Assembly: GCA_905178155.1 (NCBI GenBank)
Contig: CAJINV010000017.1
Coordinates: 1,596,269-1,660,268, forward strand
Reading direction: 5' to 3'
DNA: 64,000 nt
Origin: Amoebophrya sp. A120
Taxonomy: Eukaryota > Protista > Dinoflagellata
The position numbers were made by a program, and so were the translations under genes. The notes beneath the pieces are model-generated. The model was not told the origin of the DNA. It worked only from the letters and a program-made list of their open reading frames with translations, and did no database searches. This document shows positions 11,601 to 62,300 of this stretch, one piece after another; within the stretch, counting starts at the first letter, position 1; each line of letters starts with the position of its first letter.

Positions 11601-14600
11601 TCTACTATCGCACCGAATGTCGATGAGGAGGAGGAAATGGAGTGGAATGGAGGCGGGTCTTCCGCGACAACTTCGGGCAGTGTTGTCGATAGGTTTTTCC
11701 CCACACCGAGCCCCATGGACGTCGATGACGAGGGGGAAGATGCGACGGTGTATTACCACTCACAGGCGTCTCAAACAGAAAATAGCCGAGTGGAAGACCA
11801 AGCTTGCCCAGCTGGAGGTGCTGGGGGAACTACTACTGCAGCCGACGACAAGATGACCTGTTCTACCTCTAGCAGGTCAGTATCGAAGGAGAGCAAGCGG
11901 AACACAGTTACGAGCGAGGAGCAAGAAAAGAAAAACGGCGAGAGTGACAGGCTGATCTGCCACGAGATCGTGAAGCTACTGACCACTGCAAGCGAGGATT
12001 GGCAGGACCCAATCACGCTAGACGTCATGGACGACCCTTGTCTCGCTTCGGATGGTCACGTGTATGAAAAGTCCAGCATTGAGCGGTGGATGACGCAGTC
12101 GCGAACGAGTCCGAAAACCCGCGAACCTTTAACAGCCATGCCCCCAGTGGTGCCTGTCAGACTGTTGAAAAACACGATCACAAATTGGAAGGAACAGCAC
12201 TCGAAAGCGTTTGAGCTTGCACTGCTGCACAACCAACCGGAGATCTGCGAACATTTGATGGCCAGCGGTTTTGATGCGGACAAGTTCTTCCTGCAGAATG
12301 CAGCGAACGGGAATTTGGAGGTATGCAGTGCTCGTGTCCTCTTGATTTATCGTGCTCTGTAATTCGGCGCGACACGCACCGGGCACGTACAAGTGCACAA
12401 ACTCGCCGTAAAATGATCACGCAAACTGAAGCACTTGAATACAGCCACTCCCACCTTTAACCGTGTATTTTCGCCACCATAGCACGTACTTTCATCTCGT
12501 TGCTGTCCTCTTTGTTTTGCTCCGTCACCACCAACCCTATCCACAACAAATTGATGAATTTTCACGACCTACAACCACAGGTGATCAAGGCTCTTGTGTC
12601 CCCCACCGACGCCCGAACTCCATATGTCAGCCACGTGGCTGATTTGGTGGACGACATGCTATTACCAACACCGCCCCTCGGTGTCGTTTCTCGTGGCGGG
12701 ACGACGATGGCGACGCTCTTTTGCCAGTTTGACACCTTCAACCGGGACAGGCATATCCACCGCAAAAGTACTATCGCACTCGCAATCGCTATCAGTTGCA
12801 GTGATGCGCATGCGTGAAAACAAATGTAGTTCCTCATCTGAGCAGTCACCGTTGCAGATTCAGTTTTTCCTCTTGAAAGAATCTTGAATGCACATCACAT
12901 TTCTACGTACTAGTTGTAGGTGTAAGTAAGGTACTCTTGCAATGCATACGGGACAGCGAAAAGCAAATGTGGCCAAGCTTCACTGCAGTGCACGCAGCGG
13001 CATACCGCAACCACGCGGACATCGTCGAATTTTTGTTGCAGCAGCCAGGTAACAAGGGACAGTGGGTTCTTCTTGAGCACTAGCCTCCGCTTCGCATTCT
13101 TGAAGAACAAGTGTCGTGTTGAAGATGATCATGATTAACATTCCATTTTTGTTCGCTAGACTTCACATGGTAGGACAAAGTCTAATCTGCGGCTGCCATG
13201 CAAGAAATTTTACTTCTCCTCTACAGGCGTCGACGTTTGGGCGACTGACGGTTGTGGGAACACACCGCTGCACTACGCGGCGTACCATGGGAATACCAAG
13301 ATGACCGAGGTGATTCTCGCGAAAGCTGGCTTTTTAGACATTGTGATGGCCAGAAACGGAGGACAGAAGGCCGCTGGAATGTCTTCCCCGTCAACATACA
13401 AGACAAACTTGCAAATCGATGCGGGGCAACATCAGAACCCACTTCTCGATGCTGGAACAAGCTGCTCATTGATGCCGTTGGAAAATTTACCCGGCGTCAC
13501 TGCCCCTCCAACAGCGGCATACGTCGGCGCAAGTTCTTCGGAACCACCTGCAGTGGTCTCAACAAGAGCTTCGACCACGAGCGGCGTTCGTGGGAGCATT
13601 TCGTCCACGACAGATCTGGTGAACGATTTTCTGGACCAGAACCGCCAGCGCTATTTGAATTTCACGGGCAGCATTCGCGAACTCCGAGAGCTGCACCAGC
13701 AACTGACGGAAAGGCTGGAGTACCACGGGCGCTCTGCGCGACCGAGACGTCGACCGGCTCCTGCATCTTCAACAGCAGAGCCAGAGCCACCCCGGGAAGA
13801 GCGCACAGCTTCGTCCGTCGGCGCTTCAAGGGTCGACGCAACTCCCGCGCGACCGTCCGCGGCGAATCGAAGTACTCCGAACGGGCGAGAAAGCGTCGAC
13901 GAGCGCAGACGACGGCGGAGTGTTACTCCTCTCAGCCGGCGCGCGGGCGCATCGCAGGTTGGAGGTGCTGCATCGACGTCACCGGTGGCTGGTGGGGGCA
14001 CAGCTGCACCACCTACACCTCTTTCATCGTCAGCCGGGCCAATGTCCTCTGCGTCTTCAGGGTCTGCATCTGCTCGCGGCAGCCGCGTTTTGAGTGCTGC
14101 AAGCACTCCTGCGGGGACAGCTTCAGGAGCCACTGGTCAGCTGCAAACTAGCGCGGGAGGGGGAGCGGGCAGTCTGAGTGGCAGTTTCTCTGCACGAGGC
14201 ACGGCTGCGGAGTCGTCTAGTGCCGCTGGTGGTGCGCACAGTCTCAGCCCGCCGCTGCCAACCCGGGGTGGCGTGGCTTCGTCGGCGGGTGCGCTAGTTT
14301 CACCTGGGACAAGTGGGGCCAGCGTTTCGCGGACCCGCCCGGGAACCACGACCTCATCATCCTCTTCCGCCACCTACCGAGGAGCGTTGTCGAGCCAGTC
14401 CACCGCCAGCATCACGCCTAGAAGGGGGAACAATGGCAACACGGGCGGAATAAATGGCGCAGCTTCTTCTTCTCTCCACACCAGACCGAGTACGCTTGCG
14501 TCGCTGCGGGCCCGGGCGAACACAAGTCCCGGCACCGGGGCAGCTGGAGGTGCCAACAACAGCACGAACAATGCCGGGGCTCCTGCTCAGACTTCATCTT

Positions 14601-17600
14601 CCTCCTACGGCGGGGCGAATTACCCAACGCCAAGGGGCGTGAACAGGTCGCCTAGAACGGCTGCCGGCCAAGCTTCTTCGTCTTCCGGAAGTGCGGTTCA
14701 GACAGGAGGAGTCGCTGCCCTTACCGCTGCTGCACAGGGGCGCATGCAGCGCTTGCAATCAGTTTTGGCTGGAAACGTGATTGCAATGCCTGGAGCTCCT
14801 GGTAGCGCAACAGCCTCTGGAGCTCATCTCCCGGTTTCCCCTCTCACCCACTCCCGCACACCCTCCTACATTCCCTCGTCCGCAAGTGCGACGCACATCA
14901 CCCGACCTGGAGGCACGAGAGCGGATCAGTCGACGTCCTCACACCAGCATATTTACAGCGAACCGCTCCCGACCTCTCGAGACCGCCATCCGCTACTGGA
15001 TGAGCTGGCGGCGATCGATGTTGACGCAACCCCCGCGAATTTGGGTTTGCGCCCGGATATGGTGGACGCCGTCAGTCGGAAACGCGAGGAATGGCTGTTT
15101 CGGAGACTGATGCCTGCGGTGTTTTTGCAAAAGTCGAAAATGTCAGAAAACATCACTGCGAAGAATAGCCTGCAACTGGAGGAAAGAACAAGCAAGAATG
15201 ACCGGCGCAGTGGCCGCGACGGAAATCAGAAAAAGGGAAATCAAAGAAAGCATTCGTTGCCGCCCTCGGATCCGCACACCTATACGCAATTTCTGACCGA
15301 ATCGGCGAGGCGCAGCGAGGAAAGGCTGAAGCTGATCTATTGGTTCTGCAATTCTCTATCCGAAGCCGCCGATGGGGGCGAAAACTTCCGAATTTTGCAG
15401 CGCGAGTGCAGCCATCTGTTGACGTATTTGTCGGGGTGTGCGGAGCACAACCGAGCCCGCGCTCTGGAAGATCTGGAGGCAAGGATGCAGAAGCTAGACG
15501 TCAGTGATAGAGACAGGGACGTTGTCGACCAGCTGCGGGCTCGTGCTAGTACTAGCACAAATGGTGCTAGTACTGGTTCTGCATCGTCATCGGCCGACGC
15601 AGCAGGGTCGACAAGAACTTCTCGGACGCCGAGGACTCAAGGCAGTTCTTCTGCGCGCGAATCGCGAGAACGTATGGGCCACAACAGTCCGGTAATCACT
15701 GAGGAGCAAGTAGACGCTCTAACGAACAATCCTGCAGGCGGAAGTGGAACCTCTGGCTCTGGTGCGCCGCGACCAGCATCACAAATCCGCCTGAACCTCG
15801 GACCCATGCACGAAATCGATCTCTTACCAGATGATCGCGGACCAGTACCGGCGATACCGAGCGCTGCAACAGAACAGGCTACGGCTGCACAGACGTCGGT
15901 CGAGGAGCTCAGCAGAATTTACAGTCCCATCCCACAGCGAGGACTACACCCAGACCAGGACGAGGAGGAACCAGACGGGTACTACACCCCCACGTCTGCC
16001 GAATTTGACAACTTCCCGGTTGTTGTAGCACCAGATGTTGCTTCCGCAATATCCGTGCAAAACGAGAACGAACACCTTCAACAACTCCCCACACGCCCGA
16101 CTTCTCGATCTTTCGGTGACGGAAGCACAAGCAGCGCAGCAGCCGCGCGACGAAATCGCCCAATCCCGGGGGAGCTGGTCGACGATCAGATGAGAAACGA
16201 CGCAGGTGCGCCGTCTATGGGCGCAGGAACGGTGTTCGATGGAGAGGTGTTGCAGGGCGAGGTAATCCTGCAAACGCCGGACCACTACGGGAGCAACCCG
16301 TTTGAAGACACCACAGAGCAGCGGCACTCCCTCGGTGACGCTGTGGCCGCAGACACTGCGTTAGCAGCTGCCGCCAGACAGCAGCAGCTTCCCTTGGACC
16401 AGCGGAACACGCGGACAGTGACGATGACGTCGATTTCGCCCCCAAACGACGACGATTTCTCCAGCAACTCCGAACTGGAGTCCGTCACGGCGGAGCAGGA
16501 GCAGATTGACCGTTTTCTAGAGCAATACGCAAACGACCGACCGAGTTTTATCTCCCGCATCTCCGCGTTTTCCAACAGTATAAACACACTGCAATTCCGG
16601 GAACAGGCACGAAGAATGAGTGCAGCGGGAAGCAGCACGACCGGCGCCGCGAGAGGTACTACTTCTAGCACAGGTGGTCGAGAATCATCTTCGGGAGTAG
16701 ATGCTGCTGCTGCTGCACCGACATCTTCGGGGCGTGGCAGCGGTAGTGGAGTGGGTGGTGCAGCTAGTGGGAGTAGACCTTCACCCGGGAGAACGTCTTC
16801 CGGGTCCGGGTCTGCAGGACCGACACCGAGGACTAGCAGATCTTCGACGGCTGGTGCTGCAACGAGCAGTAGTGCAGCGGTATTAAACGCAGGGTCATCA
16901 ACATCTCCGACAAATGGAGCAGGTGGTCCAACAGGCACTACTAGTTCAACAATTCAGCCACGCCTCCGGCGCAGCGACAGCTCGTCGTACACCTACGCCT
17001 CGGTTGAGCAGGTCGATCGAAATGCAACAGTGGCAGATCCAGATCCAGATCAAGAAGCCATCCCAGCCTTCGAAGATATGCCATCGTGGCTTCGCGGGCT
17101 TGTATCCAAAAAAAAGAACCATCCCGATCCAATTTGGCATGCAATAAAACATGCGTCCGAGGAGCCTGTTTTTGTCATGTCAAAAATGGAAGATTGGGAT
17201 GAGTCTGTTTCTGTGGATAGCTCGCTCTCTCCAGCGACATGCCGCTCCCGACATGGATCTACCAGGCCGCCACTGCAGTGGACTTGGCGGGGAATAACGA
17301 TGCTGCCTTGCGGGCAGATCAAGAGCAGCCCGCAGAAGCAGCAGGTGGCTCTGCAGCGGAACAGCAGCAATTGCGTCGTCCCGGCGGACCGTCCGCCGAG
17401 ACTGTGAGCGGTGTGCGAAACGAGCGAAGCAGCAGCGATCCTCGACGTGCTGCTGGGATGAACCTGGCAGCTGCAGGAGCTGCTGCGTCAAGAAATCGAA
17501 CAAGAACCACAGCAGCAGCTGCACAGCCTGCTGACCTTTCACACGGCCCCGTTGCAGAAACACCCGCGGGAGCTGCCGACCGCCCGTCCATGACAGAGCT

Positions 17601-19680: not shown

Positions 19681-22600
19681 ATGTTTTTGCGTGCCGTCTT
19701 CTTTCGTGCCTTTCTGGCCCTCGGGTTGTTCTTCTCAAAAGCCCTAGACGACGAGGGTACCGTATTTATTTCCTCGGCTGCTGTTACTACTCCGCCTCCG
19801 CCAGAGCAACGCAGCAGTCCCTCACTACTTGACACAGAGACAGAGGTTGTCGAAAAGGAGCAGAAATACTACGACCAGCCGCTGCCCAGCTTCGACCCCA
19901 GCGGCCGCGAGGCCTCGGACGTAAATCTCACCGACTTCCGGCTTTTCAACCCGTACTGCCACCCGTTGAACCGTACGACCAGGCGCTACGAAGTGAGGCG
20001 GGTGTCCTTGGACGCACCACGGGTCTTGGATGTTGTGGCGGCGTATAGTAAATTTGGGTCCGTGGAGCCGAAGGGCAATGATCTTCCGGCTCCACCGAAC
20101 GATGCGGGGAGGATGCACGAACAAGTAGACCAGGCGGCGCGGCAGGAAGGACTACCAGCATCCGCATCGCGAAATAATAACCGGCCTGCGACTACTAGAA
20201 GCAGGAAAAAGCTCATCCGCCGTGTCCTGGGCTTCCCACATCCCGCGCATTCCGGCTTCGGGGACAGAGTTGGCATGTTTATCTCCCTGGCGGCACTTGC
20301 GAAAACCTTGTCGACGACAGAAACGCGACAGATGAGAGGTACAACTTCATCTGCAGATGAACACGGCGCCGGTTCCGAAAGTTCTCCACGTCTGTTGAAG
20401 ATTCAATATGATTACAAGATTCTGACCTTCTGGCCGGCGGGCGGGCGCAACGACAACTGGGGCCACAATTTTCGCCAAGACGGGTCTACTTGGCCAATCT
20501 TCCGCCCGGACCGATTTTTCACCCTGCTGCGGAGCCTACCGAAGCAACTCATCTTGCTTCGCTCGCGAGCGGAGTTTTTGCGAGTTTGGGACGCCTTGGA
20601 CACCATTGTCAGGAGGTTAGAGATGAAGGATGATGAAACTGGGGCTGCTACTAGTAGTGCACGAGCAAGTGCAGCGTCTAGCAGGGCTGAACCGGAAGGC
20701 AGCGTGATCAGCGTCAAAGGTAAAGAACGCAAAAAGGTCGAAATTGTGCACTACGCGAGCACCACACCCGGTGCTAGAATTGCTGCCGCAGCGGGGGGTA
20801 GAAATAGCAAACCACAAGACGGTCACAGCAACACCAAAGGATCTCCATCTTCTAGTAGTACATCCGGCACTCCGAACAAGATGAACAAGAGCACATTTCC
20901 CGCCTCGGCGCTGTTTAAGAACCTGCGGGAAAGTTGTTGCGGCATTTTTTCAGACGAGGAAATGGCTGAGCTTGGCAAAGACGACGAAGTTCCCATGTTT
21001 GAGCAGCAGAAAATAGTGACACGGTTAAATGGCGGCGAGGGGGCAACTCTGTATCTCCCCACCGCGGCGAAGGCCGCCGCCGCAAACGCGGACGCCCAGG
21101 CCGACGCTGCTGCTCTTTTATCGACTTCTAACGACAGGAAGAAAAACCCCAAATCGCACAAGGTCGAAATCGTCGCAAGTAGCACGACCGCGAGCGTTGG
21201 GCTGCTGCCTGAACTTGCGGTGGGCCATATGATGGAGTTGCAGGACCAGATTATGATGCGCACTGGAAAGGGAAAGATAACGGAAAACAAGAAAAAGGCT
21301 TCTAAAATAGACTCCAGCAACGACGTCGTGATCATTCCGTCCCAGCACGACCAGCTTTTCGCCGACATTCCCGAGAAGAACGAGTTTGACGTCTCTATCG
21401 AGTATGTCGTCGTCCCGCTCGACGACTTTGTCATGTCCTCCCAAATCGAGCACGGGATGTGGGTCCAACCCGAACCGACGTCGTTCCTGTTCAAATTGCT
21501 CTTTCCAGGTCTGAACACAGATTTGTTTGTCCAAAACTACTACGAACTGGCGCCGCTCGTACAGTTTCAAGCCCCTTCCGCGCGGATCATTTACCCGAGC
21601 GCTGTGCCTCCTCCGTCCTACGGAAAGGCGGACCACCTGCCTGCGCGTGCTGATGAAGATGATGAAAAGGCTGCAGTTCTTGTATCGACCCAGAGCCAAA
21701 CAGGTCGTTTGCAGACTCTTACACAATATGAAAATCGTGCTGACATGAGAACCGATGTTGATGAAGCAGGAGCAGCACCTTCATTTACAACATCCCTGAA
21801 CAACCGTCCTTACCTTGCCCTTTACCTGCGCCGCGGAGAGAAGCAGTACCACAGCAGCATGCGGGAGGGATTACTGTTTCACCACCTGAAGCAACTACTG
21901 GTGGTCGAAGCGCCGGTGTTCGCGAAGAAGTTTGCCTGGGTCGTCATCGGCGATACGCCCAGTGTGGTGGGAAGGTATGTCCGCTTTTTGAAGTCGTCCT
22001 GCAACGTGACGATCGCCGTATCTCGGGACGAGTTGGAGCTGGAGTATGAGCAGCAAGCCAGTACTTCATCTGAAGATCATCATCATGCGGAAACTCCCAA
22101 GTATTCCAGTACTAAGGCCCAGGATAATATTGGTCATAGTACAACTACGACATCGCCGGCTCGACCAAGCGAATCCTCCGAATCGCTCGTCGACTTCTTG
22201 CAGCGGGCGTTTCTTTCCGAAACGTCAGAACTTTTAGGGGATGAAGATCCAGACCAACAGAGCCCCCGCAGAGGAACAACTGTGTCAGTAACAAGTCCGG
22301 CAAAAAGTACTACCTCTTCTCTCTTCCGCCTCCCCTTCAGCAGGGACCACGAAACAATCAACAACATGCCGGCAGACCTGCAAAAGAACTTCACAGCCCT
22401 CTACTCTGACTTTTCGCTTCTGACCAGAGCGGCTGGTATTGTGATGCACACGGCGCGCGGGGACGGGTGGAGCTCGTTTCCAGCGGTGGCGGCGATGATA
22501 GGCGCGAGAAGGGCTGGAAGATCTTCGCCTATATGCATTGCAAAAGTAGAAGTGTGATCGTGTTCGTGCCTTCCTATAAATCACATGGCAAAGTTTTCCA

Positions 22601-23005
22601 AAGGGAAAAATGGTCGTGTCTGTCATGCGTATTTAAAGTAGAAAAGCAGTTCTGTCATCGCAAAACTGGCAAAATATATTATGTGAGTGCGATACTACTT
22701 ACAGCTTTTGCACAGGATTGCCTATCCCCATATTCAACTTGTATCTCGTTGGCAACACCTACACCTACTTCCCCGCCGCGGTGAAGGTGCACGCGAGGGA
22801 CCAGAGAAGGGAGCCCTACGATAGGAAAGACCTGCGGAACAGCTGGGCGATCGGGTACACGCATGACCCAAGTCGGTATGACATCTACAAAAGCATAAAC
22901 TGCGGCCGGGGGGTGCCGAACATGTACTTCCTCATAACGTCACATCGCTTTGTGGAGGAAGTTCTTGGACTACAACCTAGCGCCTGCACCCACTGTGAGG
23001 AGTAG
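19681..23005 (+). CDS. Membrane-anchored fucosyltransferase-like glycosyltransferase (GT11/GT23/NodZ-type GT-B fold)
   Basis: Hydrophobic N-terminus. Motifs SGFGDRV, YLALYLRRGEK, WVVIGDTP and DFSLLTRA..SSFPAVAA resemble conserved fucosyltransferase motifs, separated by low-complexity inserts. Removing the introner at 22532-22719 joins ORF 22718. Confidence 0.65.
22532..22719. mobile_element. Introner, family F1 (diverged)
   Basis: TATGCATTGCAAAAG...CTTTTGCACAGGATT, TSD GCCTA. Removal restores ..SSP-IPIFNL.. Confidence 0.85.
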
Positions 23006-23786
23006 TAAACTGGTGCATAGATGAGGACGAGGACGAGCCCAGTAGATGCTAGTAAAACTGTTCATGTTCTTGTTCTAAAGACGCAGCTTCCGTGCAAGCC
23101 ATGGCACATTTTTAGGTTTCTCGTTTCACACTCACAGCAAAGATGAAAAGCAGAAACAGCACACCATTCACATGGATGTTCGTTGCTCGTGGTTTTCAAG
23201 TATGTTGCTCTTGTTCTTTGTGCCTTCGACCTGTCGGCGTCACTTGTACCGTCCAAAGAAGGTGAACTTGCTGTACGATGCACATCTGCAGTCGTGATCA
23301 AAATAAAGGCAGTGCAAAATTGTTAATGCGATTTCGGCTCGCTCGAAAAATTTCATGGTCGCGGTCGTGTATCTGTATTCTGAGAACATTGCTTTCCTTG
23401 TTCTTTGTTTTCTACGTCGAGAGTGGAGTAGCACAAGCCTCCCGAGTGTGACTTCTACACCAGATCGTCGACCTCGTGATTGGGGAAAGTGTCATTACGA
23501 TGCCATGGTCGAAATAAAGAAGTCGCTCTCATTCTCATTGTTGCAGGTCGCAGCGACCTGAGGCAAAGGTAATATTCTGAACAAAACCAGGAGCATCGTC
23601 ACGGCCTGACTGGACTGTTAAATGTAAGTGCGCCGGGGTCGTGCTGCCTGTACTCTGTTGAAGTAAAGACGTCATCGAGTTGTAAATCTTTTTACCGTTA
23701 TTTGACGGGTACGATCTTTGTGCCGGTTCGCTCTCCTCTCGGTCTTCTCTCTTGTGAGCGCATCATCAGTGTATTGATGTTGTGCC

Positions 23787-24313
23787 TATGGGGGGACAAA
23801 CTAGGGGCGACGAACTGAGAACGGCCTTTTTTCGAGGCTTAGATGTAGTGGGTTTTTTGCGAATCGTCCACTTTCGGGGAAGCTCAGGCGAGGCCCCCTG
23901 CGTCTAGTTTTTGCGCAATAGCAGCGGCCTAATACGCCGCATTCTCTACCTGAGGTTCGCGCCTGCACCGCTTGCCTTGTTTCGAAAACGGCGCGGCGCT
24001 CGCGCTAGAAATCACTTTTATAGAATATCCAAGCCCATTCCGCCCTAGATATTGAATATCCAGCGCGGTATCCTATATCCACGCCGTCCCGCCGTGGAGA
24101 TACACCAGGGGGGCGTAATATTTTATAAAATGGCTCCGCCGATTTGGCTCCGGAAATGGTTGCCATGGACATAGAAAATACATCCGTGCGTGTGCATTTG
24201 GGGGCGCTGACGAAGCAAAAAAATCAAGCAACCCAAGAAATCGGGCCTATATCTAGACACAAAAAAAAGGCCATTCCCATTCTCAGTTCGTTTCCGAATT
24301 TTGTCCCCCCATA
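23787..24313. mobile_element. Intergenic MITE with TAT...ATA ends and 8-bp TSD
   Basis: TIR TATGGGGGGACAAA..CGAACTGAGAA..GGCCTTTTTT mirrored at 24240-24313. Flanked on both sides by GTTGTGCC. Confidence 0.85.
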
Positions 24314-24564
24314 GTTGTGCCCTCCCGGTTTCGTCGCGTCCTCGATGATGGTAACGTAAGCTGCTGAGCCAGAATGTATGGTGAGCTGCTTGCTGAGCGT
24401 TGATGCAAGTGGTGGATCGTTTGATATGCGAATGCAATGTCGTGAGCACCAGAGAGAGATACTAGTGAGCGGGGCGTGGAGCATGAACGTCTTAAGAGCT
24501 TCGCTGGATAATGAGCATGAGGTTGGAGAGACGCGAGTCGTGCCTGAGGTTTCTCACCTTTTGT

Positions 24565-27500
24565 AGAAAGACGCCGGGAGTACAACAGTAGTTCGTCACT
24601 ACATGATACTGAGTGGAAAATTTCAAGAATAAGAAAACGAGCAAAATTCGGTCTTTAGAGTCTCTAGGGCGGTCGGGAGGGGTTCCAAGATCGACGAAAC
24701 ACGATGCCGGCGGCTCGACCGGCAGCGCAGAAGCAGCACGCGGCGCCCTTGGGCTCGGCCGCGTTGCATCCGGCCGGGACGCCATTTCGCCAACCATCGC
24801 CACGGGGCGCCACTTGTACTTGGAGAGGAACCGGCAGGGCCCCCGCAGCCCGACAAAGCGGCTCTTCTTGACGCCGGCAAGCAGCTGGCCGGAGGATGAA
24901 AGTGGGGCGCTTTACAGATACGCGACGTCTTTGCCAGAGTTGGCCAAATGTTGTAGCATATTTTTCGACGCCCCAAACAGTTCGCCCAATTCGCGCGCCC
25001 AATCCGGACCCTTAGCAGGGTGGGACTCCGCTCCCCGACGGACTGCATTTTGGGCGCCCAGAATTGAGGCGCCGCGTGACTCCAGAATCGATTTCCGAAG
25101 TGGGCGAACTTCCAAAAGCGCGTTTTTTGAGCACAAGATGATCAAAAAAGTCCTCTGAGCGACCCCCCGCGCCAGGGGTTGCCGGAGGGGCCTACTTTTT
25201 CATTCTTGAAATTTTATCCAGTGGGAATAGGGCAAAAGCCCGTTTCAGGAATGGCCCAAATCTAGGGTTCTCGAGAGGGGTCGACCCTGTTCATTCTTGA
25301 AATTTTATCCAGTGGGAATAGCAAAATTTTGCGTGAATCACGGGCGCAATGCAGAAAAGAGCTCCGGCGTCGAGTCCCCTGGCAATGTCTTTACTCGGGC
25401 ACGCCCGCAGAAGCAGGCGGGATTATTTCAGTAGCTTCGAGCCGCTTCACGCTTGCCTGTGGAGGCGCCGCCGCGCCTCGCCTATTCGGACCACGTGACG
25501 ACCCGAGCCCATTTGGCCCCGGTTATGAATTTTCCAGAAACGGCCACACCTAGCTAACTAGTTTCGTGCGTGAGGTTGGTAGCCCTCGGCCCGTCAAGAA
25601 AGACGCCGGGAGTACAACAGTAGTTCGTCACTACATGAAGCCGTCAGCGTCCCCTCGCAGCTAGAAGTACAAGTAGGAGTATTTGTCGCTCGCGCCGCCG
25701 TGGAGGGGGCACAACGGCGCGGGATATTCTTCATAACTATAGAGCAGTAGAAATTTTAGAAACGGAGAGACCAAAGGAATGCTGTGCGAAAGGCAGCGCG
25801 CTAACTAGAATAGGGAATCCACAGCGCCCCAACGATTTTGCCTTTGAGGAAGTACGTCCGTCGCCAAATAGGGTCCTGGGGGTTTCTGGTAGAAAGACCC
25901 CCAGGCAGAATGAAATATGACCCCCCGGCAGACATAGATCCCGAGCGTGGGAGGTAGATCCCCAGGGAGAAAGATCCCCAAGTAGATAGATTCACAGGAG
26001 GGCTCCCAGGGACGGAGACACACCCCCAGGGACATACATTCTCAGTGAGAAACTTAGAACCCCAGGGAGATAGGTGCCCAGGGATGTAGTTTTCTTCTAG
26101 GGAAATAGCCCCCCAGGTAGATTGATAACATAGACCCCAGGCACTGACGCAGGTAAACCCCCAGTGAAGTAGGGCCACAGGTTGGCAAGTAGCCCCCCAG
26201 GTATGGGAAGGCTTTCAGCGGTAGATCCCACGGTATGGGCAGGAGCTGCGCCCCCTGCGCTCGGGGGCTGGCTTTGTTCTATCTGCCGGGCAGAACTGGC
26301 AGCGCCTTCTTTCGCTTTGCTAGCTTTCCCTTCCCACCCTCGGCCGGCAGCGCCGCTTTAGTTGGAAGGCAAAGGGGCCGCGAGCATGCCAGCAAGCAAG
26401 CTGCATGACCCGGAGGCCGTGTTGGCTTTGTGCGCCTTCCCCTCAGATATAGAATGATCTCTCAAGAGCGCCGCTGTGCCACATTCGTTCCCCCAAGCAG
26501 GCTGGCCCGGGTGGCGTTCTCCCGCGAAACCCCCGCGGTGCCTCCTGTTTCTTGCCTTCCTTCGGGCCTGCAGTCGTGCGCGTGGCCCCACTTCTCGCCG
26601 GGCCAGGCCCCGTTTATTGTAGAAAGACGCCGGGAGTACAACAGTAGTTCGTCACTACATGTTATCGCCGCCGAGGCGGCGGTAGTGAGGTCACGCTGGG
26701 TTTTTTTTGACTGGGCGCGGCCGTCCTCTCGGACCGGCGCGACCTACGGTCGCGCGGTCCGAGATCTTTTGTTTTTGGGCGCGGCAACAGGCCTCGGGCC
26801 GGCGCGACCTGCGGTCGCGCGGCCCGAAGACTTAGCGCGCCCGCGCTGCGGGCGCAGTGCGCATTTGCTTCCCCCCGCCTCATACATAAGAGCTTCTGCT
26901 GATTGGTTCTACGCGGTCTAGAGTGTGCTATCAGGAGGGTGTTCGCCGCTGTGATCCGTGGGCCCCGCACCTTCAAGTCATCGATCGGGGGCAGGCGTAG
27001 CAAGGGCGGCGACGCGAGACGCGGATGGGAAACCTGAAAAATGAATTAGAAGTGATTGCATGTGGGAAGACGAAGAGCCGCGAAATTCTGCACATTACAT
27101 GTAGGAAATAGAGCCTTCAAGTGATGGCGTGTGGGATATAGAGTATGAGCCTTGAAGTTCTGCACATGAGCGAAGGCGTGTCAAGCTGGCTGGTGGCTGC
27201 ACTAGCTATGTAATTAAATACTAATTGGAAGACGAAGATCATGATCCACGCAACATCCTCCTGATCCTGATCCTGATCCACGAAAGCAGACGAAGGAACG
27301 AAAAACAACCAAAGCGGCGAACGAACCCAAGCACGCACTGTGGCATTGCTCTAGCTTCTCCGGCGCTAGTACGTGCTTGCTTTCTTTTTTGGTTTTGGTC
27401 TTCTTGGGTGCCGAAGGGCCAAAAAAATCATACACGTTGTCACACACGAAAACGCTGTTGCTCATCTCATCATACATAGATCAAAGACTGCGGTCTGCTG

Positions 27501-27796
27501 TATCATACAAAGCAAAAAGACTGCGGTCTGTGGCCGCAGGAGGCAACTTTTTTCACTCTTGCCTCCTCCTACGCACCCGCTCCCGCGAATACCGGGGCGC
27601 AGGCGGATGCTCGGCCAACAAGTCGTCCTCTTCGTCCATGAGGACGTCTTCGTAAGTCCATTCGTCATCATCGTCGACGTCTTCGTAAGTCCATTCGTAC
27701 TCCCGTCGTAGAAAGACGCCGGGAGTACAACAGTAGTTCGTCACTACATGAAGCCGTCAGCGTCCCCTCGCAGCTAGAAGTACAAGTAGGAGTATT
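24565..27796. repeat. Widely spaced array of four identical 41-bp repeats with ~1-kb unique spacers
   Basis: AGAAAGACGCCGGGAGTACAACAGTAGTTCGTCACTACATG at 24565, 25597, 26621 and 27710. Copies 2 and 4 share a further 46 bp downstream. Confidence 0.95.
25890..26240. repeat. Degenerate minisatellite (AGA[T/C]CCCCAGG-like units)
   Basis: More than 10 variants such as AGACCCCCAGG, AGATCCCCAGG, AGAACCCCAGG and TAGCCCCCCAGG at irregular short spacing. Confidence 0.7.
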
Positions 27797-28272
27797 ACGT
27801 ACCCTTCACCTCATCGTGATAGTGATGAACGATGACGAGGACACGGGAAAAGCTGCAAACAGTTTCTCTATTTCGTATTCGTACGTCACACTCTGACCTA
27901 GCTGATTTCAAGTTGAGTTTGAAACAACGCTCATGATTCTCGATCAATAAACTCGTCTAGGATTGTCAAGACGTTCTCTCCTCGTCGGCGTATCCGTACC
28001 GCTCGACATAATAAGAAATCGCTGCTTAGTTGTTGGGGCACAATAAGTGTGTTTTTTTTTCTGCCCGTGAAGGTTATATATAGTTAACCAATAAGGCAAG
28101 AGCCGAATAAAACTTGTTCGTCCAGCACGACGTAGTCGGCTAGAAGAGCAAATCGCAAACCCTAGAGAAAAAAGGTCACCCTCCAGTAGTTCTTCCCAAG
28201 CCAACGAGACCCTCGTCCAGGAAAGAACTTCAAAAGAACCGACCTGGGATTACGACGACAACCGATCGCTAG

Positions 28273-31232
<2,960 letters not shown>

Positions 31233-39627: not shown

Positions 39628-42600
39628 ATGAACACTCGTACCAGCACGTTCTTCTTGCCGCGGCTCGTCTCTACACTAGCGCCTGCAGTCCTCTACTGCA
39701 GGATGGCCGTCGACGTGGGAGCACGCCAGTCTACTTCGGCACGACGAGCGCAGCAAACGCGGGTTCTGCTGGATGCCGCAGCTGAGGACTTGTCTCCTCA
39801 GCAAGATTTGCTCGTCCACCTGGGGGATGACTATGACACAGATAGCACACAGGAGTTGGTGCAGCATGATGTACACGACAAGCCAGCGGAACGATTCAGC
39901 GACGAGCAGCACAGGTCAAGGCTGCAACTGCTTCGCGGTAGGAAATCACATACACATCAAGACGAAGACCAAGAACCTGCAATACCAGAACCAGGCGCAA
40001 GTGACGTCATAACGAAATCTTCGCTACTACTACAACAATATCACCATCTTATTCCGGACGAAACTAAACAACCACAACCAAGAAACAAAGCAAGTGCAGC
40101 CACCAACCCGTTCTCCTCCTTCCAAGAAGCAGGGCAGCAGCAACATTTGGAGCATCTTCGCGCGAAGCTCAAGCCAGAGGACCACTTAGCAGCTCTAAAG
40201 CCCTTGGGTGAGAAGATTCTATCGAGCTGCTTCCCGCGGCCCTCCGAAGAAAACAAAGAGAAAAGGGGCAGAATGACCGACATCACCAGTGCTGGCCATA
40301 CGACCACATCAAACAAAAGAGCGAATGTCGAGATTCAAACGCGCGATCCTCTGACACGACAGCCACGGATCGACTTCGTCACTTTCTGGACGCCGCGCGG
40401 GGGCGACCAGGATTTGAAGCATCAGCTGCGGAGTTTTGGACAGAATGGCTTGCTGTCAAAACTCCGGAAAATTTTCGTTTTGATCCTACCACCACCAGAG
40501 ACAGGACGAGTGGCCACAGAGACAGACGCGGAGGATGAACTACAGGCAAGTGGACCAGAAGATGAAGATCAACATGGCAAACACAAAGAGCACGGTGTTA
40601 ATCTTGATGCAACAGAAGGAAGTACTACAAAAACCATGATGCAAGCGGACGAGGCGGAAATCGACGCGGAAACTGGTTTGTCATTGGACAGAGAGATCAG
40701 AGCCGGAAAGCAAAGCCAGGGCAGCGGCAATGCTCGAAAGCAACAAGATGAAATTGCTAGTGGTAGGACAACGCGAAAAATATCATCATCCTCAAAAACG
40801 ACCTCATCCATTTCAACCGCATCTTCGAAATCAAAGAAGCAAAAGCACTTCGCGATGGAGCGGATGCTGACTGAGCTCCAGCTGCCAAAGTGGCTCGACG
40901 ACCAAGCAGACGAGGCTGTTTTTGAAGTTACCACAGTCGGTGAAAAGGAGACAGATGTGCAGAACGCCAAAAGTTGGGCCCTTTCCCTGCTGCAACGTCG
41001 AAACAGGAAGGAGCGCGAGAAGAACTACAGTGACGCCGATGTTGACAGTGCTGGTAGTACTTCTACAACCGCATCAACCAGCGAGAACTACAAGGACGCC
41101 GCGAGAACAAGTAGAGCATCCTCTTCTAGTAGCTCAAATGCGGTTCTGCCAGCAGCTTCACTCGTTCCAACTATCTCCTTTGTCACGGTGCCACAGTGCG
41201 TGGAAGAGAAGCTGGCCGAGAGCCGCATCCGCTGGGCGCAAATCTGCAAGATGCAGCACATGCACAAGATTCCTGGCCTTTCCGACTGGTTTCTGTGGGG
41301 GCCGGACGACGTGTTTCTGTTTAAGAAATTTCCTTCCTTCGGAACAATTTTTGTGGAGAAGAAAAGTAAAAAGCCCTTTGCCTACTCCAGCGGCAGCTTC
41401 GGTCTCGGCGACTGTCTCGGGGAAAGACCGTTTGGCGAGTTGCACGGCGTGGCGTTGCTGAATAAGTGCGCTCTGACGGAAACTTCTGCGGAGATGGTGA
41501 AAGTAGCGCAAGACAAGGGCAGCACTGGCGCTGAAGGATCTCAACTGCTATCATGGTTGAAACACAAACAGTACGTGTACGGCGATGCCGACCAGAATGT
41601 AGGAGGCAAAATTCTTCATCCCGAACTGAATTCCGTCTGCGTCGCCACGCATGCCATGTTGGAGACTGGTGAAATTTTCGCGAACAAGCACCTGATCAGC
41701 TACGCGGGAAAAAATTCCAATGGCGTCGCCGTCATTGCGGAGTGCCACGTGAACGGGCCCACTTGTCACACCACGCAGTATTTGGAACAAATCCCGACCG
41801 TCTTCGTGAACGTGCAGGGAGACGGGTTCAGTGCGGAGTACCCAAAGTTGGGCGAGAAACTTTCCCAGAAAATAGAACCCTCCGATCGCATCACGAAAAA
41901 GTACTTCGAGAAGAAATTTCCGAACCCTTCGGTATTCGAAAAACAGATCACCGAAAGTGTGTTTTTCGACAAGGAGAAGTTTGAAGTCAAGGATGCTCCG
42001 GACGAAGAAAAGAAGAATAGTCGGATTGTGGAAGCCGAAGCCAGTGTTGGGGGTGGTGTTGAGATTTCCAAGTTGGTGAACAAAAACCAGATGTCGAATC
42101 GACAGCATGTGAAGAAAAGAAAAGTTTTAACGAACCCCTTTGCCCGCGAGTTAGAAAAGCTGGTAGGACGCCGGGAAAAGCTCAGAAAGCAAAGCCAAAG
42201 CCACTCTTCTGTGGAAAAATCGGACCTCCACTCAGGAAAGAATCCTGGCGCAAGACAGCAAAGCCACATTTTTGAAAAGAGACATGCTGTATTCAGGGAA
42301 AATTTGTCACCGTCACCGTTTTGGCATATTCATTTTTTGAGCAAAAAAATTTGAATTTCTGCTGGCTTTGTATGCGTGTCCGTGTCTGCCACATGTTGCA
42401 ACTGCGGCAAGCTAGCTACTGCGTTTCAAGCGCGCTGACCTAGCTCGCTGAAGGTAGTCCCGAAATATCCCAGAACGGCGCTGCCGTTATACAGGCCAAA
42501 GCCGCGGCTCCAGAAGGTCCTTGGCTGGGAGGCTGTCTACTGACACTAGAGCAACCAGATTTCCGTCCGCGGAGGATCGGAATATTGTGGCTGGTCTTGC

Positions 42601-59314: not shown

Positions 59315-62300
59315 ATGTCGAATGTTCAAGAAGAGACCAAACAGGTTGAGCAGACCGCTCCAAAGATCGTGGAATCAAAGAATGACATCGCCGCGGTAGA
59401 GCAGAAGGACCAAGACACCACACCGACCGCGGCCGCTGCGCAGTCCCCCGCTACAACCTCCGCAAATTCCTCTCCGGTCGAAGTTAAGGAGGCGGAACAG
59501 ACTAACAAGCGACCGGCGGAACAAGCTGCCGAGGCTGTGAACAAGCCAGAAGCAGAGGTCGAGAACAAGGACAACTCTTGCTGCGCGACGGGCGCGTGCG
59601 AAGAAACAACTAAGGCCGACGAGGAGAAACCCTCTGAAGCGAAGATGGCAGAACCGGCGGCAAAACTGCGTAAAACCGACGATGGAAAGGCCGTCGATGA
59701 CAATCGCATGCAGGAGATCAAAAAACAGGTATTGAAGGATTTTTCTCGACGTTTGGGCGTTTATTTCATCATGATGTCCCGCCGATGATGAAATTGTATT
59801 GCAGACACACCTACCCTGGTAGAACCTTTTCGTGGAGTGACTGGAGGGAGTTTCCCCCCGTCCGTTTGTGTATATGGGCTGGCAGATCCCTAGAAGCTAA
59901 TGCCTGGAGTTGTTGGTCTTCCGCCCCTCTGAGTGGGGTCGGGGAAGGAGCCAACGCGGACGTAGTCCGCAGAATTCGCTGGATAGTTTGCTTTGTGATG
60001 GATTCACATCGTTTTTGTGTTCTAATGGATGGTAGCTCATGTGCTCTGAGTGCACCACAGTGCCATTCCGCCATTGTGGGCGCCTCCCAGCGGGGAGGGG
60101 GGTTTGGGAAGTTCGCGTTCTAATGAATGGTAGCTCATGTGCTCAGAGTGCACCGCAGTGCCATTCCACCAAAGAGGGTGCTCCCCAGCGGGGGAGAGTT
60201 AGTTCGGAAAGACCTTTGAGGGCACCGCCAGGGAGAGCTCCCTCCAGCAGGAGGGGTTTGCGGAGATTCATCGTGGGGCGAGGTCCCAGTGGGGAGACGT
60301 AAAATGTTGCTGGGCTGTTTCGGATGGATCCTGCTTTACTGTAGGAGGAACAGGAGCGCGGACGTACAGGAGTCCATCACGACAGAAGTTTTCGGCATAC
60401 TTCGTATGAATGCCTGCTCTTATTTTTAGGGCCTAACGGGGGCGAAGTCGCTCGTGTGGATTTAGGCACCGGTGGCAGGACCTATTTTGCGTTGAAGGAA
60501 GGTCTATCGTATCAGGATCCTGGTTCGCCGCGTAGACTCAGGGCGCCACAGGAAGCAGTGGCTAGCCACGGGAGGGGCCCCAGCGAGAGCCAGGGGGGTA
60601 CGCAGGTGCCAGGCGAGGGCAACAGCTTAGTTGGAGAGCTGCCCCTGTGCACATAGGTATTGTTAGTTTTGCCAGTGCCCGCCGGTCGAGGTGAACTTCC
60701 CTACGGGGACGGTCCCAGAGGCACTCTACCGCGGAGTTGCCGACGCCGCTAGGTTTGGATATAAGGGCGGCTCCAACGGAGCAGGGGCCGCGGGGATTGC
60801 TCTACAAGGCATTTACCAGCTTCGCTCTTCCAGTGGCTTCGGGGCCTGAGGTTTGAAGTCCTGCTTGGCGGGGATTGTCTGGGGGGCCCCCGACGTTCAG
60901 TTAGCCTCCGCGCGGGGGGATTTGAGGGCTTCTGCACCAGGGGAGCTCCGCTCCGTCCTCGGTCTCGCCTTGCTTTGGGAACAGGGGTCGTTTGGCACTG
61001 GCGGTATCCAATCCGTTACCCTTGCGAACTTGTTCCCAGGCTGGGGCTGGTGGTTCGGTGTCTCACTCCTTCGCCCGTCCTCTGTTCCCATTGCCGGGCG
61101 GGGCCGAGGTTTCTTCTTTTTGGTTCTTTACCCGCACCAGAATTTGTCTGTGGTACGTGCGTTGATGTTGCGGTATGGTCCCGCATGGCTGGGATTGAGC
61201 GGGTCTCGCTACTCGTGGAACCCTTGCGGGGATGGTGTTCGTGTTGGGGGGATCACCCACGTCGGGGTGTAGACGTACAAGAGGGCCTCGCGCTTGCCCG
61301 GGCCTATTGGCGGAGAGGCCCGCTGGTGGTTCTGGTTTCCTATTGGTCCGTTACAGGAGTACGGCTCTTACCACGTCGACTCCAACTCCATACCTTCGCT
61401 TTTGGTCGCTCGCTTCTGAGTTTGGGCGTTTTCATCATGATGTCCCGCCGATGATGAAATTTTTTGGAAGTGTCACGTCGATTGCAAGAATCACATGAAA
61501 ATTTTTTGAGTGTGATTTGATATCCGTTCGGGTTTATGCAATACAAATTCAACCAAATTTTCGAGGTCGAGTACTACCTGTCCGACAAGAATCTGAAGCA
61601 CGACTATCCGATTTAAAAACGTCCCCACCCCATAGTTGTAATGCAAATCTGCATGCTGAAAATGTTTCTCATGCGGAGCCCCATGAGAAGCATTTTCCAA
61701 TCGTGTTTTGAAATTAATCATGCTCCAATCAGCATGGTATGCTAGATCTGTGATGCTGCTGAGCTAGCTCAAACAGCACTATACTACGAATCCGAATTTG
61801 TCCAAAACTTGTGGATTTGTCTAGCCGATTCCCCATCTTGACTCTGGTGTGGGGACGTTTTTACTCAGGATAACGACGAGTTTTTCCACAACAAGATTTC
61901 CCAGGAGGAAAACGGTTTCCTGGAGATGGACGACATCCTGAAATGCAACAACATCAAAAACAAGCTGATGGTACGCAGTTTTCATCTTGTAAAATTGACA
62001 GTGAGTCACCTTTTTTCGACAATGTCAATGCTTCAGATCCCGCAGTATGGGTATGTATGTCAAGTCGTTGTTGCACTTGCAGTGATCACCTTGTCCGTTA
62101 CGACTACTTACCACGTCTACCATTTACTCATCACTCCAGGTAACCGACGGCGCAGAGATCTGCACTGCTCTGAAGAGCTCCGCAACGGTCGAGTGCGTGT
62201 GTGAAAACGAGAAGATGCGAATCCGCCGAAAGGACGGCAAGAAAACCCTGCCGAAGTTGGAGCCGCGCCCGGCCAAGGGCAAGGGAAAGGGGAAGGGAAA

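Follow-up and report, generated by a model that had tools for sequence, protein, structure and literature searches.

The DNA analysed here is a 64,000-nt stretch (the window) from Amoebophrya sp. A120, a marine parasite. It contains a 41-bp repeat (A) whose four copies, at 24565, 25597, 26621 and 27710, are identical without a single mismatch, confirming the initial annotation; none of 100 shuffles matched the 41-mer, and no fifth copy with three or fewer mismatches occurs on either strand of the window. The 46-bp downstream extension (B) that had been reported for copies 2 and 4 is equally exact, and these two copies share 87 bp with 0 mismatches. Pairwise identity also runs past the 41 bp in the other combinations, reaching 45 bp for copies 1 and 3 (both with TTGT upstream), 44 bp for 1 and 4, 43 bp for 3 and 4, and 42 bp for 1 and 2. 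All copies lie on the plus strand: A1 at 24561..24606 (core 24565-24605, with the upstream TTGT as in A3 and one downstream base as in A2 and A4), where a contig from run X1 covers 24284-24590 at depth 21.9; A2 with B at 25597..25683, covered by read-depth contigs; A3 at 26617..26661 (core 26621-26661, upstream TTGT), entered by an X3 contig at 26423-26642; and A4 with B at 27708..27796 (core 27710-27750). With U and D as the left and right flanks, the array order is U-A-x-A-B-y-A-z-A-B-D, which can be read as three inserts of 990 (x), 933 (y) and 1046 bp (z) with perfect duplications of 42, 87-91 and 43 bp and a left edge in common.

The hairpin previously proposed at the 3' end of the repeat exists, but its stem is only 5 bp, and for copy 1 the folding does not exceed that of shuffles (z 0.09). 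A search of Rfam over 22000-30000 gave three weak matches, all far under cut-off, and no CRISPR repeat family. An snRNA, spliced-leader or ribozyme gene is accordingly unsupported by Rfam in that interval, and the hammerhead core motif is also absent. An exact-pattern scan with the repeat core returned no match in viral, metagenome or prokaryote contigs.

The intervals between the repeats had been called unrelated non-coding segments. They are indeed unlike each other, with no similarity better than E ~0.1, and a Pfam scan covering 35 of the 42 frames with at least 55 codons in 24300-28330 (the rest being flank frames and one 55-codon frame) brought no family to cut-off; z, however, is not silent, its right part being carried on spliced contigs of the downstream gene. 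Insert x (24607..25596) is a piece of a dispersed repeat family with about five copies and ends in CCCGTC plus one base. The family is found on five contigs, with a depth sum of 105.5 at 25542-25555, and its members occur elsewhere without the 41-bp repeat. These relatives show 7-8 differences in ~90 bases at the right end of x and depart from the window sequence after 25595; the contigs of two of them stop 2 and 18 letters past that position, implying shared family sequence beyond 25595. Judged by these contig breaks, x looks like a cut piece of its family rather than one that ends naturally. Within x there is a 32-bp exact direct repeat (25199/25290), inverted relative to the left end of x.

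Insert y (25684..26616) has about two copies in the genome (summed depth 43-54). It begins 5 bases ahead of a very high-copy hairpin mini-element (25689-25729; depth 1457 at 25705), carries an irregular array of CCCCAG motifs at about 25875-26210, and has a relative that differs by 10 substitutions and 31 gap letters over 25976-26347 (~3% substitutions). The third segment, z (26662..27707), is either an insert or native. It has GC hairpins at its left and is multi-copy near 26701 (depth 180) and otherwise single copy; an X1 contig covers 26632-27737 at depth 24 with 0 differences, and two local duplications of period 33 lie at 27483/27516 and 27643/27676. Single-copy, difference-free contigs span most of z and long parts of x. 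A frame for an acidic peptide at the z end (27556-27708, minus strand) was considered and rejected: its sole match among 1.84 billion proteins spans 17 residues, counted five times over in an unnamed protein with repeats, and we attribute it to chance.

Three insert lengths within 933-1046 bp have a chance of ~0.0025 under a log-uniform model of 100-5000 bp, and CCCGT lies at most 7 bases from the right junction in all three inserts (chance 0.002-0.003). The ends of x, y and z have no common terminal direct repeat, and neither these inserts nor a fourth, q, described below, has an A-run longer than 2 in the last 30 bases or a T-run longer than 3 in the first 30. A comparison of the spacers with dispersed elements and viruses, as the initial annotation had proposed, matched the parasite's own repeats, and the phage and virus searches were nil: the x motif had no exact match in viral or metagenome contigs, the y and z motifs had none in viral contigs, and no phage was matched by the array in blastn.

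Copy numbers were inferred from contig depth in sequencing runs, with single copy at 20-26; the runs matching the stretch come from two studies under one organism label, and four of the 11 listed were compared. In a genomic run, the contig consisting of A only (41 bp) has a depth of 98.2, or about four copies, and the A-B contig has a depth of 55.6, or about two; summed depth at 25612-25618 is 416.7 versus the ~414 expected from four local copies. Because these depths correspond to four copies of A and two of B, all copies are likely to reside in this array, with the repeat absent elsewhere in the genome. This speaks against the 41-mer being a dispersed transposable element's end, the possibility against which the original interpretation had been set. 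Single-copy contigs from X1, which may be the window's own source sample, enter the repeat by 26-30 letters from the junctions U|A1, x|A2, A3|z, z|A4 and B4|D, a reach that is just under our 31-letter bridging rule yet the maximum possible with 31-letter words.

Mis-assembly had also been named as a way in which the array might dissolve. The segments would then be real and their order, or their presence on one molecule, an artefact of threading the assembly through a repeat of 41-87 bp. The order of x and y is indeed taken solely from the assembly: no X1 contig spans a whole repeat copy plus both flanks, and U-A-B-y-A-x-A-z would be compatible with the X1 contigs. However, the junctions are present in read-derived contigs, the junction contigs are all at single-copy depth where the repeat is at about four copies, X3 and X6 contigs completely bridge z-A4-B4-D, and the alternative order too reads as nested insertions. 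We therefore regard an artefact as very improbable.

A feature stronger than the 3' hairpin, and overlooked in the initial annotation, is an inverted repeat over the z|A4 junction (27697..27728; two 13-base arms around a 6-base loop, with one mismatch), present at copy 4 only. The 13 bases ahead of copy 4 match repeat bases 7-19 in inverted orientation at 12 of 13 positions (z -4.99; chance ~0.0004), and the left edge of the repeat is the start of the 6-base loop. The TA-flanked 26-bp core of this palindrome is reminiscent of a mariner-type miniature element, a possible lead for z being native; four further TA-flanked hairpins occur in the window versus 0-1 in shuffles, none with the ends of the palindrome core. 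The x and z ends have 6 bases in common within 2 of the junction (chance 0.0027) and the U and y ends have 4, flush with it (chance 0.0045), both motifs having been picked after looking at 6 compared pairs. One X3 contig matches from 25671 on, 13 bases inside B, and has different sequence before it, a single loose end whose alignment is not visible and whose preceding sequence is absent from the window. The A1|x junction has no microhomology or fold-back, the end of the 91-bp duplication has no real hairpin (z -0.17), and subterminal hairpins at the insert ends are no better than shuffles except at the y start and the A3|z junction.

Downstream of the array lies the first coding exon (28318..28667, plus strand) of a PALP (pyridoxal-phosphate) family enzyme, presumably cystathionine beta-synthase or cysteine synthase, with the PALP matches in later exons. 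Its intron at 28668-28878 is spliced in X3 and X6 (an X3 contig joins 26878-28667 to 28879). Copy A4 is enclosed by a GT..AG intron of the gene's leader, 27369-28174: one X6 contig joins 27368 to 28175 at depth 65.9, with 28 letters on the short side. None of the runs recorded as matching the stretch is an RNA run, and the raw-read RNA run X9 has no reads on the entire stretch and is therefore mute on transcription either way. The array locus appears to have remade the leader of a housekeeping gene.

A second locus with like geometry occupies 59751..61461, within an intron (59729-61565). Here, copies of 45 bp (59751-59795) and 42 bp (61420-61461) of a hairpin-containing stretch, which differ by one 3-bp indel, surround the 1624-bp insert q; both repeat and insert are unrelated to those of the array. 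One junction has imperfect microhomology and the other a 15-base inverted match to the nearby flank. A hairpin precedes the end of the short duplicated unit by 2-4 bases at the array and at the second locus alike, and three of the four duplications in the window, at two unrelated sites, are 42-45 bp long, the fourth being 87-91 bp.

Our results support the earlier view that the array is no ordinary satellite or segmental duplication, and its appearance supports repeated insertion at one site. For the further proposal of integron- or CRISPR-like logic as dedicated machinery, we found no evidence. A site-specific capture system of that kind, or one driven by a tyrosine recombinase with the 13-6-13 palindrome as its substrate, would add ~1-kb cassettes and keep the repeat identical, in line with the repeat-spacer geometry, the identical repeats next to diverged spacer families, the near-equal sizes and the palindrome at copy 4. 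CRISPR arrays, however, alternate repeats of ~23-55 bp with spacers of similar short length, whereas the 41-bp repeat here separates spacers of 933-1046 bp and one duplication is 87-91 bp. Integron attC sites carry RYYYAAC and GTTRRRY core sites, neither of which occurs on either strand of A or A-B, and integron cassettes carry genes, for which neither the Pfam search of 35 of 42 frames nor the one searched peptide, with its chance match, gave any sign. The statement that no recombinase, RT or Cas gene is visible holds for the ~65 of 110 window frames of at least 125 codons that were scanned, which likewise lack Cas1/Cas2 or effector genes. In addition, three of the four copies lack the complete palindrome, a like geometry recurs at an unrelated site with an unrelated repeat, no Rfam family reached cut-off, and the spacers match no phage or virus but consist of repeats of the parasite itself. 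The array is like CRISPR arrays in geometry alone, with a ~40-bp repeat duplicated per insertion, and unlike CRISPR and integron arrays in its ~1-kb spacers from own repeats, its varying duplications (42, 43 and 91 bp), its lack of attC sites, cassette genes and Cas or integrase genes in view, and its eukaryotic host; we consider a capture system quite improbable. Least probable of the readings is one that the initial annotation had also entertained, in which A-x-A and A-z-A would be TRIM-like or split-direct-repeat (DIRS/Ngaro/PAT-type) elements and the 41-mer their terminal repeat. That layout, the TG..CA of copies 1 and 3 with its inverted end of 5 bp, and the inverted matches of z to both A ends would suit it. 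TRIM and LTR mini-elements have TG..CA terminal repeats, dispersed copies and a 4-6 bp target duplication outside, and Ngaro and PAT elements have an A..B-A-B terminal layout plus RT and YR genes. Here, by contrast, the genome has only about four copies of the repeat versus about five of x, the x relatives lack the repeat, no 4-6 bp duplication lies outside any TG..CA pair, a TG start is missing from copies 2 and 4, no polypurine tract is found at the ends, the layout is A-x-A-B, and no RT or YR domain was found in the frames scanned; depth largely refutes this reading. Motif searches in 12 of the 14 supplements of PMC12130899 were nil but uninformative, the long sequences being incomplete in the material available and Dataset S2 lacking the word Amoebophrya.

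Next after template-switch repair, to which we return below, ranks a transposon enzyme acting in trans, possible in our view though unlikely: a Dualen/R9-type non-LTR retrotransposon (two staggered nicks and target-primed reverse transcription) or a Replitron-like HUH transposase would have moved ~1-kb non-coding units into one repeatedly nicked preferred site. The literature offers precedents: duplications at Dualen insertions are often >50 bp, with a median of 900 (PMC9977147), the R9 target duplication is 126 bp (PMC9977147), variable duplications accompany Replitron-N1, which is non-autonomous and about 910 bp long (PMC10288648), and the A120 genome has non-LTR and LTR retrotransposons (PMC7789003). 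Such an enzyme would also suit the CCCGT near the right junction of all three inserts, their similar sizes, the left edge constant at T^AGAAAG and the end of B at GAGTATT^AC (27790-27798). The last of these fits the nick-site motif of circular Rep-encoding ssDNA viruses, but the nonamer has no significant stem and was recognised post hoc. As in Dualen-4b of Chlamydomonas and R9 of rotifers, as far as the available text of PMC9977147 describes them, the inserts lie between long perfect host repeats (42, 43 and 87-91 bp with 0 mismatches; 45/42 bp at the second locus), of variable length as in Dualen and at a fixed site as in R9. Unlike those elements, x, y, z and q carry no 3' element part with a tail or RT-coding remnant, no endonuclease trace and no common 3' sequence longer than 5 bases. 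Their target, moreover, is not rDNA but intergenic or intronic sequence of a single locus. The ~0.9-1 kb non-coding units, variable target duplications and hairpins by the junctions recall Replitron-N1 as presented in the accessible part of PMC10288648, but the 6-bp direct repeats at both termini, near-identical parents (the closest relatives are 3-8% off or absent) and a Rep gene were not found here, and Amoebophrya is unnamed in the Replitron supplements searched (PMC10288648). Also against a transposon enzyme, x seems cut relative to its family, the four inserts lack terminal repeats and shared internal sequence, and the ~65 of 110 long window frames scanned yielded no RT, HUH or transposase domain.

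One native landing site was likely duplicated to give the four identical 41-bp copies, and the array is probably what a series of insertions left behind, each having copied this site anew, rather than a CRISPR- or integron-like cassette store. We tentatively favor template-switching repair at a hairpin hotspot as its origin. From the sequences, identities, junction motifs and depths observed directly, we infer an order of events, donors and a pathway as follows. Repair synthesis would leave the site right after a small hairpin, copy ~1 kb of another template and rejoin upstream via short microhomologies, each event leaving an insert plus 42-91 bp of re-copied target. One switching history fits every junction. 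The precursor would have been U-A-z-A-B-D, in which the end of z carried the fold-back copy of A; from A, synthesis would next have moved to the x donor, with a landing at the z|A context via CCCGTC; A-B would then have been copied, with a switch to the y donor via overlap with the B end and a landing at the U|A context via TTGT, giving U-A-x-A-B-y-A-z-A-B-D. Three nested insertions with 42-, 43- and 91-bp duplications would give the same product, and z may be native instead of inserted.

Junction microhomology and fold-back (the 6-bp and 4-bp end matches and the 12/13 fold-back) and the non-natural x end are of the type expected from repair, and the inserts' lack of poly(A) tails and of Pfam matches to mobile-element enzymes favors this reading as well. 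The confinement of the repeat to this locus, the junctions of the second locus and the position of hairpins near the ends of the short duplicated units at both loci speak for it too. The available portions of the relevant papers document short fold-back inversions of 5-34 bp at DNA breaks (PMC11724301) and snap-back synthesis (PMC5728401). Like the templated insertions, fold-back inversions and synthesis-dependent microhomology-mediated end joining described there (PMC11724301, PMC5728401), the array has distant sequence copied in, junction microhomologies, inverted flank copies and no element-specific ends; unlike the templated insertions at breaks in yeast mutants, with medians of 88-187 bp in the accessible text (PMC11724301), it has inserts of 0.9-1.6 kb, direct duplications of 42-91 bp, recurring edges and no identical donor. 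The literature found on end-joining genes in Amoebophrya, seen in part, consisted of general papers only. Against template-switch repair, no identical donor was seen: relatives differ by 7-8% at the right end of x and by ~3% for y, and z is without a relative over most of its length. Because the repeat copies have no differences (divergence bound ~1.2% per copy) yet the donors are diverged or absent, lost or segregated donors must be assumed. The left edge was reused three times and the right edge twice, within a few bases, which suggests more precision than random repair and counts against this reading. So do the near-equal insert sizes, far above the yeast medians, the 91-bp duplication with no real hairpin at its end, and the single loose end behind the X3 overlap.

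A CRISPR- or integron-looking array can arise in a eukaryote through repeated insertion with long target duplication, which is relevant to scans that score such geometry. A bolder claim, which we hold to be doubtful, is that Amoebophrya has an undescribed integration pathway that places non-coding passengers of 1-1.6 kb just behind short hairpins with a measured target duplication of 42-45 bp (or about twice that) and leaves the target usable; it would build CRISPR-like repeat-spacer arrays in a eukaryote and could hand new leaders and splice donors to neighboring genes. Insertion with long target duplication may be common in this genome, as suggested by its four footprints at two sites within 64 kb. 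Should the duplication length prove constant at 42-45 bp, an unknown integrase or a nick spacing set by chromatin would be indicated for this dinoflagellate relative.

The array is real rather than misread: exact 41-bp repeats (A1–A4) occur at 24565, 25597, 26621 and 27710, as initially annotated, and the 46-bp extension (B) shared by copies 2 and 4 was confirmed. No further copy exists in the window at up to three mismatches, and 0 of 100 shuffled controls contained the 41-mer. Exact pairwise identity extends over 87 bp for copies 2 and 4, 45 bp for copies 1 and 3, 44 bp for 1 and 4, 43 bp for 3 and 4, 42 bp for 1 and 2 and 41 bp for 2 and 3. The layout is U-A-x-A-B-y-A-z-A-B-D, in which x, y and z are successive spacers of about 1 kb and U and D the upstream and downstream flanks. 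The spacers fit their earlier description as mutually unrelated and lacking credible reading frames: none resembles another better than E ~0.1, 35 of the 42 frames of at least 55 codons contained no Pfam family at cut-off, and an Rfam search of the array region gave no match near any cut-off.

Amoebophrya sp. A120 is a parasite of dinoflagellates, and the window holds a diacylglycerol acyltransferase frame with 100% identity to a protein labelled as coming from this strain. The array is flanked by a frame of 958 codons, which ends at 22557, and by a gene for a PALP-family enzyme, which starts at 28318. Four long uninterrupted frames of 624–1368 codons (8671–10545, 13301–17407, 19681–22557 and 39628–42354) have no Pfam match. 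Just upstream of the array, at 23786–24314, lies a multi-copy miniature element with perfect 15-bp terminal inverted repeats, enclosing smaller hairpin units.

Contigs were drawn from 4 of the 11 sequencing runs on record. Run X1 is treated as genomic because its contigs cover 30 of 30 bins, those in introns as well, with depths of 20–26 for unique contigs; it may be the source sample of the window itself. Copy numbers were estimated by comparing the depth of individual contigs with that of single-copy contigs from the same run, a summed depth being no copy number. Among the matches listed (8 of 17), the repeat-only 41-bp contig has a depth of 98.2 and the A-B contig 55.6, or about four and about two copies, so that all copies of A and B lie in this array. 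At single-copy depth, X1 contigs reach 26–30 letters into the repeat from U, x and z and exit it into z and D. Contigs from runs X3 and X6 cross z-A4-B4-D whole, and one X3 contig overlaps the final 13 bases of B ahead of y; the contigs of these three runs would also accommodate x and y in the reverse order.

The spacers differ in their relatives. Spacer x matches five contigs (summed depth 105.5 among the matches listed). Its relatives differ at 7–8 of ~90 bases, lack the repeat and diverge from the window after 25595. Two of them end 2 and 18 letters past that point, implying that sequence common to the family continues across the local junction, and x is therefore probably a truncated piece of its family. 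A single X1 contig (depth 27.6) links 24657 and 25285, and a shorter, internally reduced relative of x located elsewhere is suggested. Spacer y has about two copies, its relative being ~97% alike with a 30-bp insertion, and it starts five bases ahead of a hairpin mini-element. This 41-bp element (25689–25729; summed X1 depth 1457, roughly 60 copies) also occurs inside other contigs with unrelated flanks.

Spacer z is a single contig of depth 24 with zero differences, only its left hairpins being multi-copy; it holds two separate local duplications, each of period 33 (27483–27530 and 27643–27698). An X3 contig extends from 26878 into the spliced gene downstream, and in one X6 contig 27368 is followed directly by 28175 over GT..AG, with copy 4 removed and a short side of 28 letters. 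X3 and X6 are guessed to be RNA runs; splicing is evident. Spacer z may be the native leader, which its single copy number, its splicing and the palindrome at copy 4 would suit, or an insert, which the 43-bp flanking repeat would suit.

Read as inserts with duplications, x (990 bp) is bounded by repeats of 42 bp, z (1046 bp) by repeats of 43 bp and y (933 bp) by repeats of 87–91 bp, the three duplications having a common left edge within four bases. The 13 bases before copy 4, and before that copy only, are an inverted copy of repeat bases 7–19 (12 of 13, with a 6-base loop; z value −4.99, chance 0.0004). CCCGTC is common to the x and z ends (chance 0.0027) and TTGT to the U and y ends (0.0045), each among six pairs compared, and CCCGT lies near the right junction in 3 of 3 inserts (0.002–0.003). 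All of these chance figures, that for the inverted copy included, were calculated only after the motifs had been seen.

Outside the array, a scan of the window for exact direct repeats of at least 18 bp, spaced 100–5000 bp, returned one pair, which extends to a copy of 45 bp at 59751–59795 and one of 42 bp at 61420–61461, the two differing by a 3-bp indel. Its 1624-bp insert, q, is unrelated to x, y and z, has 59% GC, strong G/T strand skew and an internal 82-bp tandem pair, and its reading frames gave no Pfam match. The locus sits in an intron that would measure ~170 bp without q, in a gene with a weak, below-cut-off La-domain match (E 0.012). The duplicated stretch contains a 9–10 bp stem, and q starts with an inverted match to nearby flank (14 of 15 bases). 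At both loci the 42–45 bp unit ends 2–4 bases past a hairpin. The bold reading, a measured 42–45 bp integration pathway that builds arrays, seems improbable. A looser scan (at least 13 bp, spacing 25–6000 bp) found 31 pairs versus 1–8 in shuffles, those outside both loci being short and mainly miniature-element copies or local duplications. A TA-flanked inverted-repeat element occurs in two copies 89% alike (61604–61872 and 54046–54326), the former interrupting the La-like gene's reading frame in introner-like fashion.

In the most economical reading, the repeat is native single-locus sequence copied anew at each event. We tentatively favor template switching during repair, a reading that falls somewhat short of an even chance. 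It explains why x has a cut end, and also the microhomologies and the fold-back. From a precursor U-A-z-A-B-D, a four-switch path would yield the observed layout and both end matches. Fold-back inversions of 5–34 bp and distant templated insertions are documented in the accessible part of one study (PMC11724301), and snap-back synthesis in that of another (PMC5728401). Against template switching, no identical donor is seen while the repeats show no differences (bound ~1.2% per copy), insert sizes are near-equal (chance ~0.0025), insertion edges are reused precisely, and the yeast templated insertions in the accessible text (PMC11724301) are much shorter than the inserts here. The same observations favor an enzyme with a preferred site, like those of the Dualen and R9 non-LTR retrotransposons, which make long target duplications, or of the non-autonomous Replitron-N1, as far as the available text describes them (PMC9977147, PMC10288648). 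We consider such an enzyme the less likely of the two readings; tails, termini and remnants of coding sequence are all absent from the inserts. A nonamer at the edge between the B of copy 4 and D fits the nick motif of single-stranded DNA viruses; it has no significant stem.

The proposed CRISPR- or integron-like logic and the alternative of a TRIM or split-repeat recombinase element were not supported, their defining features tested here being absent; the likeness to CRISPR arrays is one of geometry only. The defining features of a Replitron tested here were likewise absent. The initial annotation saw no recombinase, reverse transcriptase or Cas gene in the window, and none, nor any HUH domain, was found in ~65 of the 110 frames of at least 125 codons.

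According to the accessible parts of the sources, repeats make up 23.8% of the A120 genome, most of them unclassified, and include both LTR and non-LTR elements (PMC7789003); the genome also contains numerous introner families (PMC12130899). Within the window, a PALP-family gene intron carries an element of extreme copy number (29040–29200; X1 bin depth ~39,000), to which copies at 30161–30421 are related. A 1.1-kb imperfect palindrome at 42290–43426 (center 42858/42859; 425 of 561 aligned bases pairing), with TA at each end and a 68-bp internal periodicity, resembles a foldback element. In the accessible portions of the literature searched, whose coverage was incomplete, neither this locus nor any 40–90 bp duplication in Amoebophrya is described. 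The array is best read as a locus-specific insertion hotspot with long target duplication.
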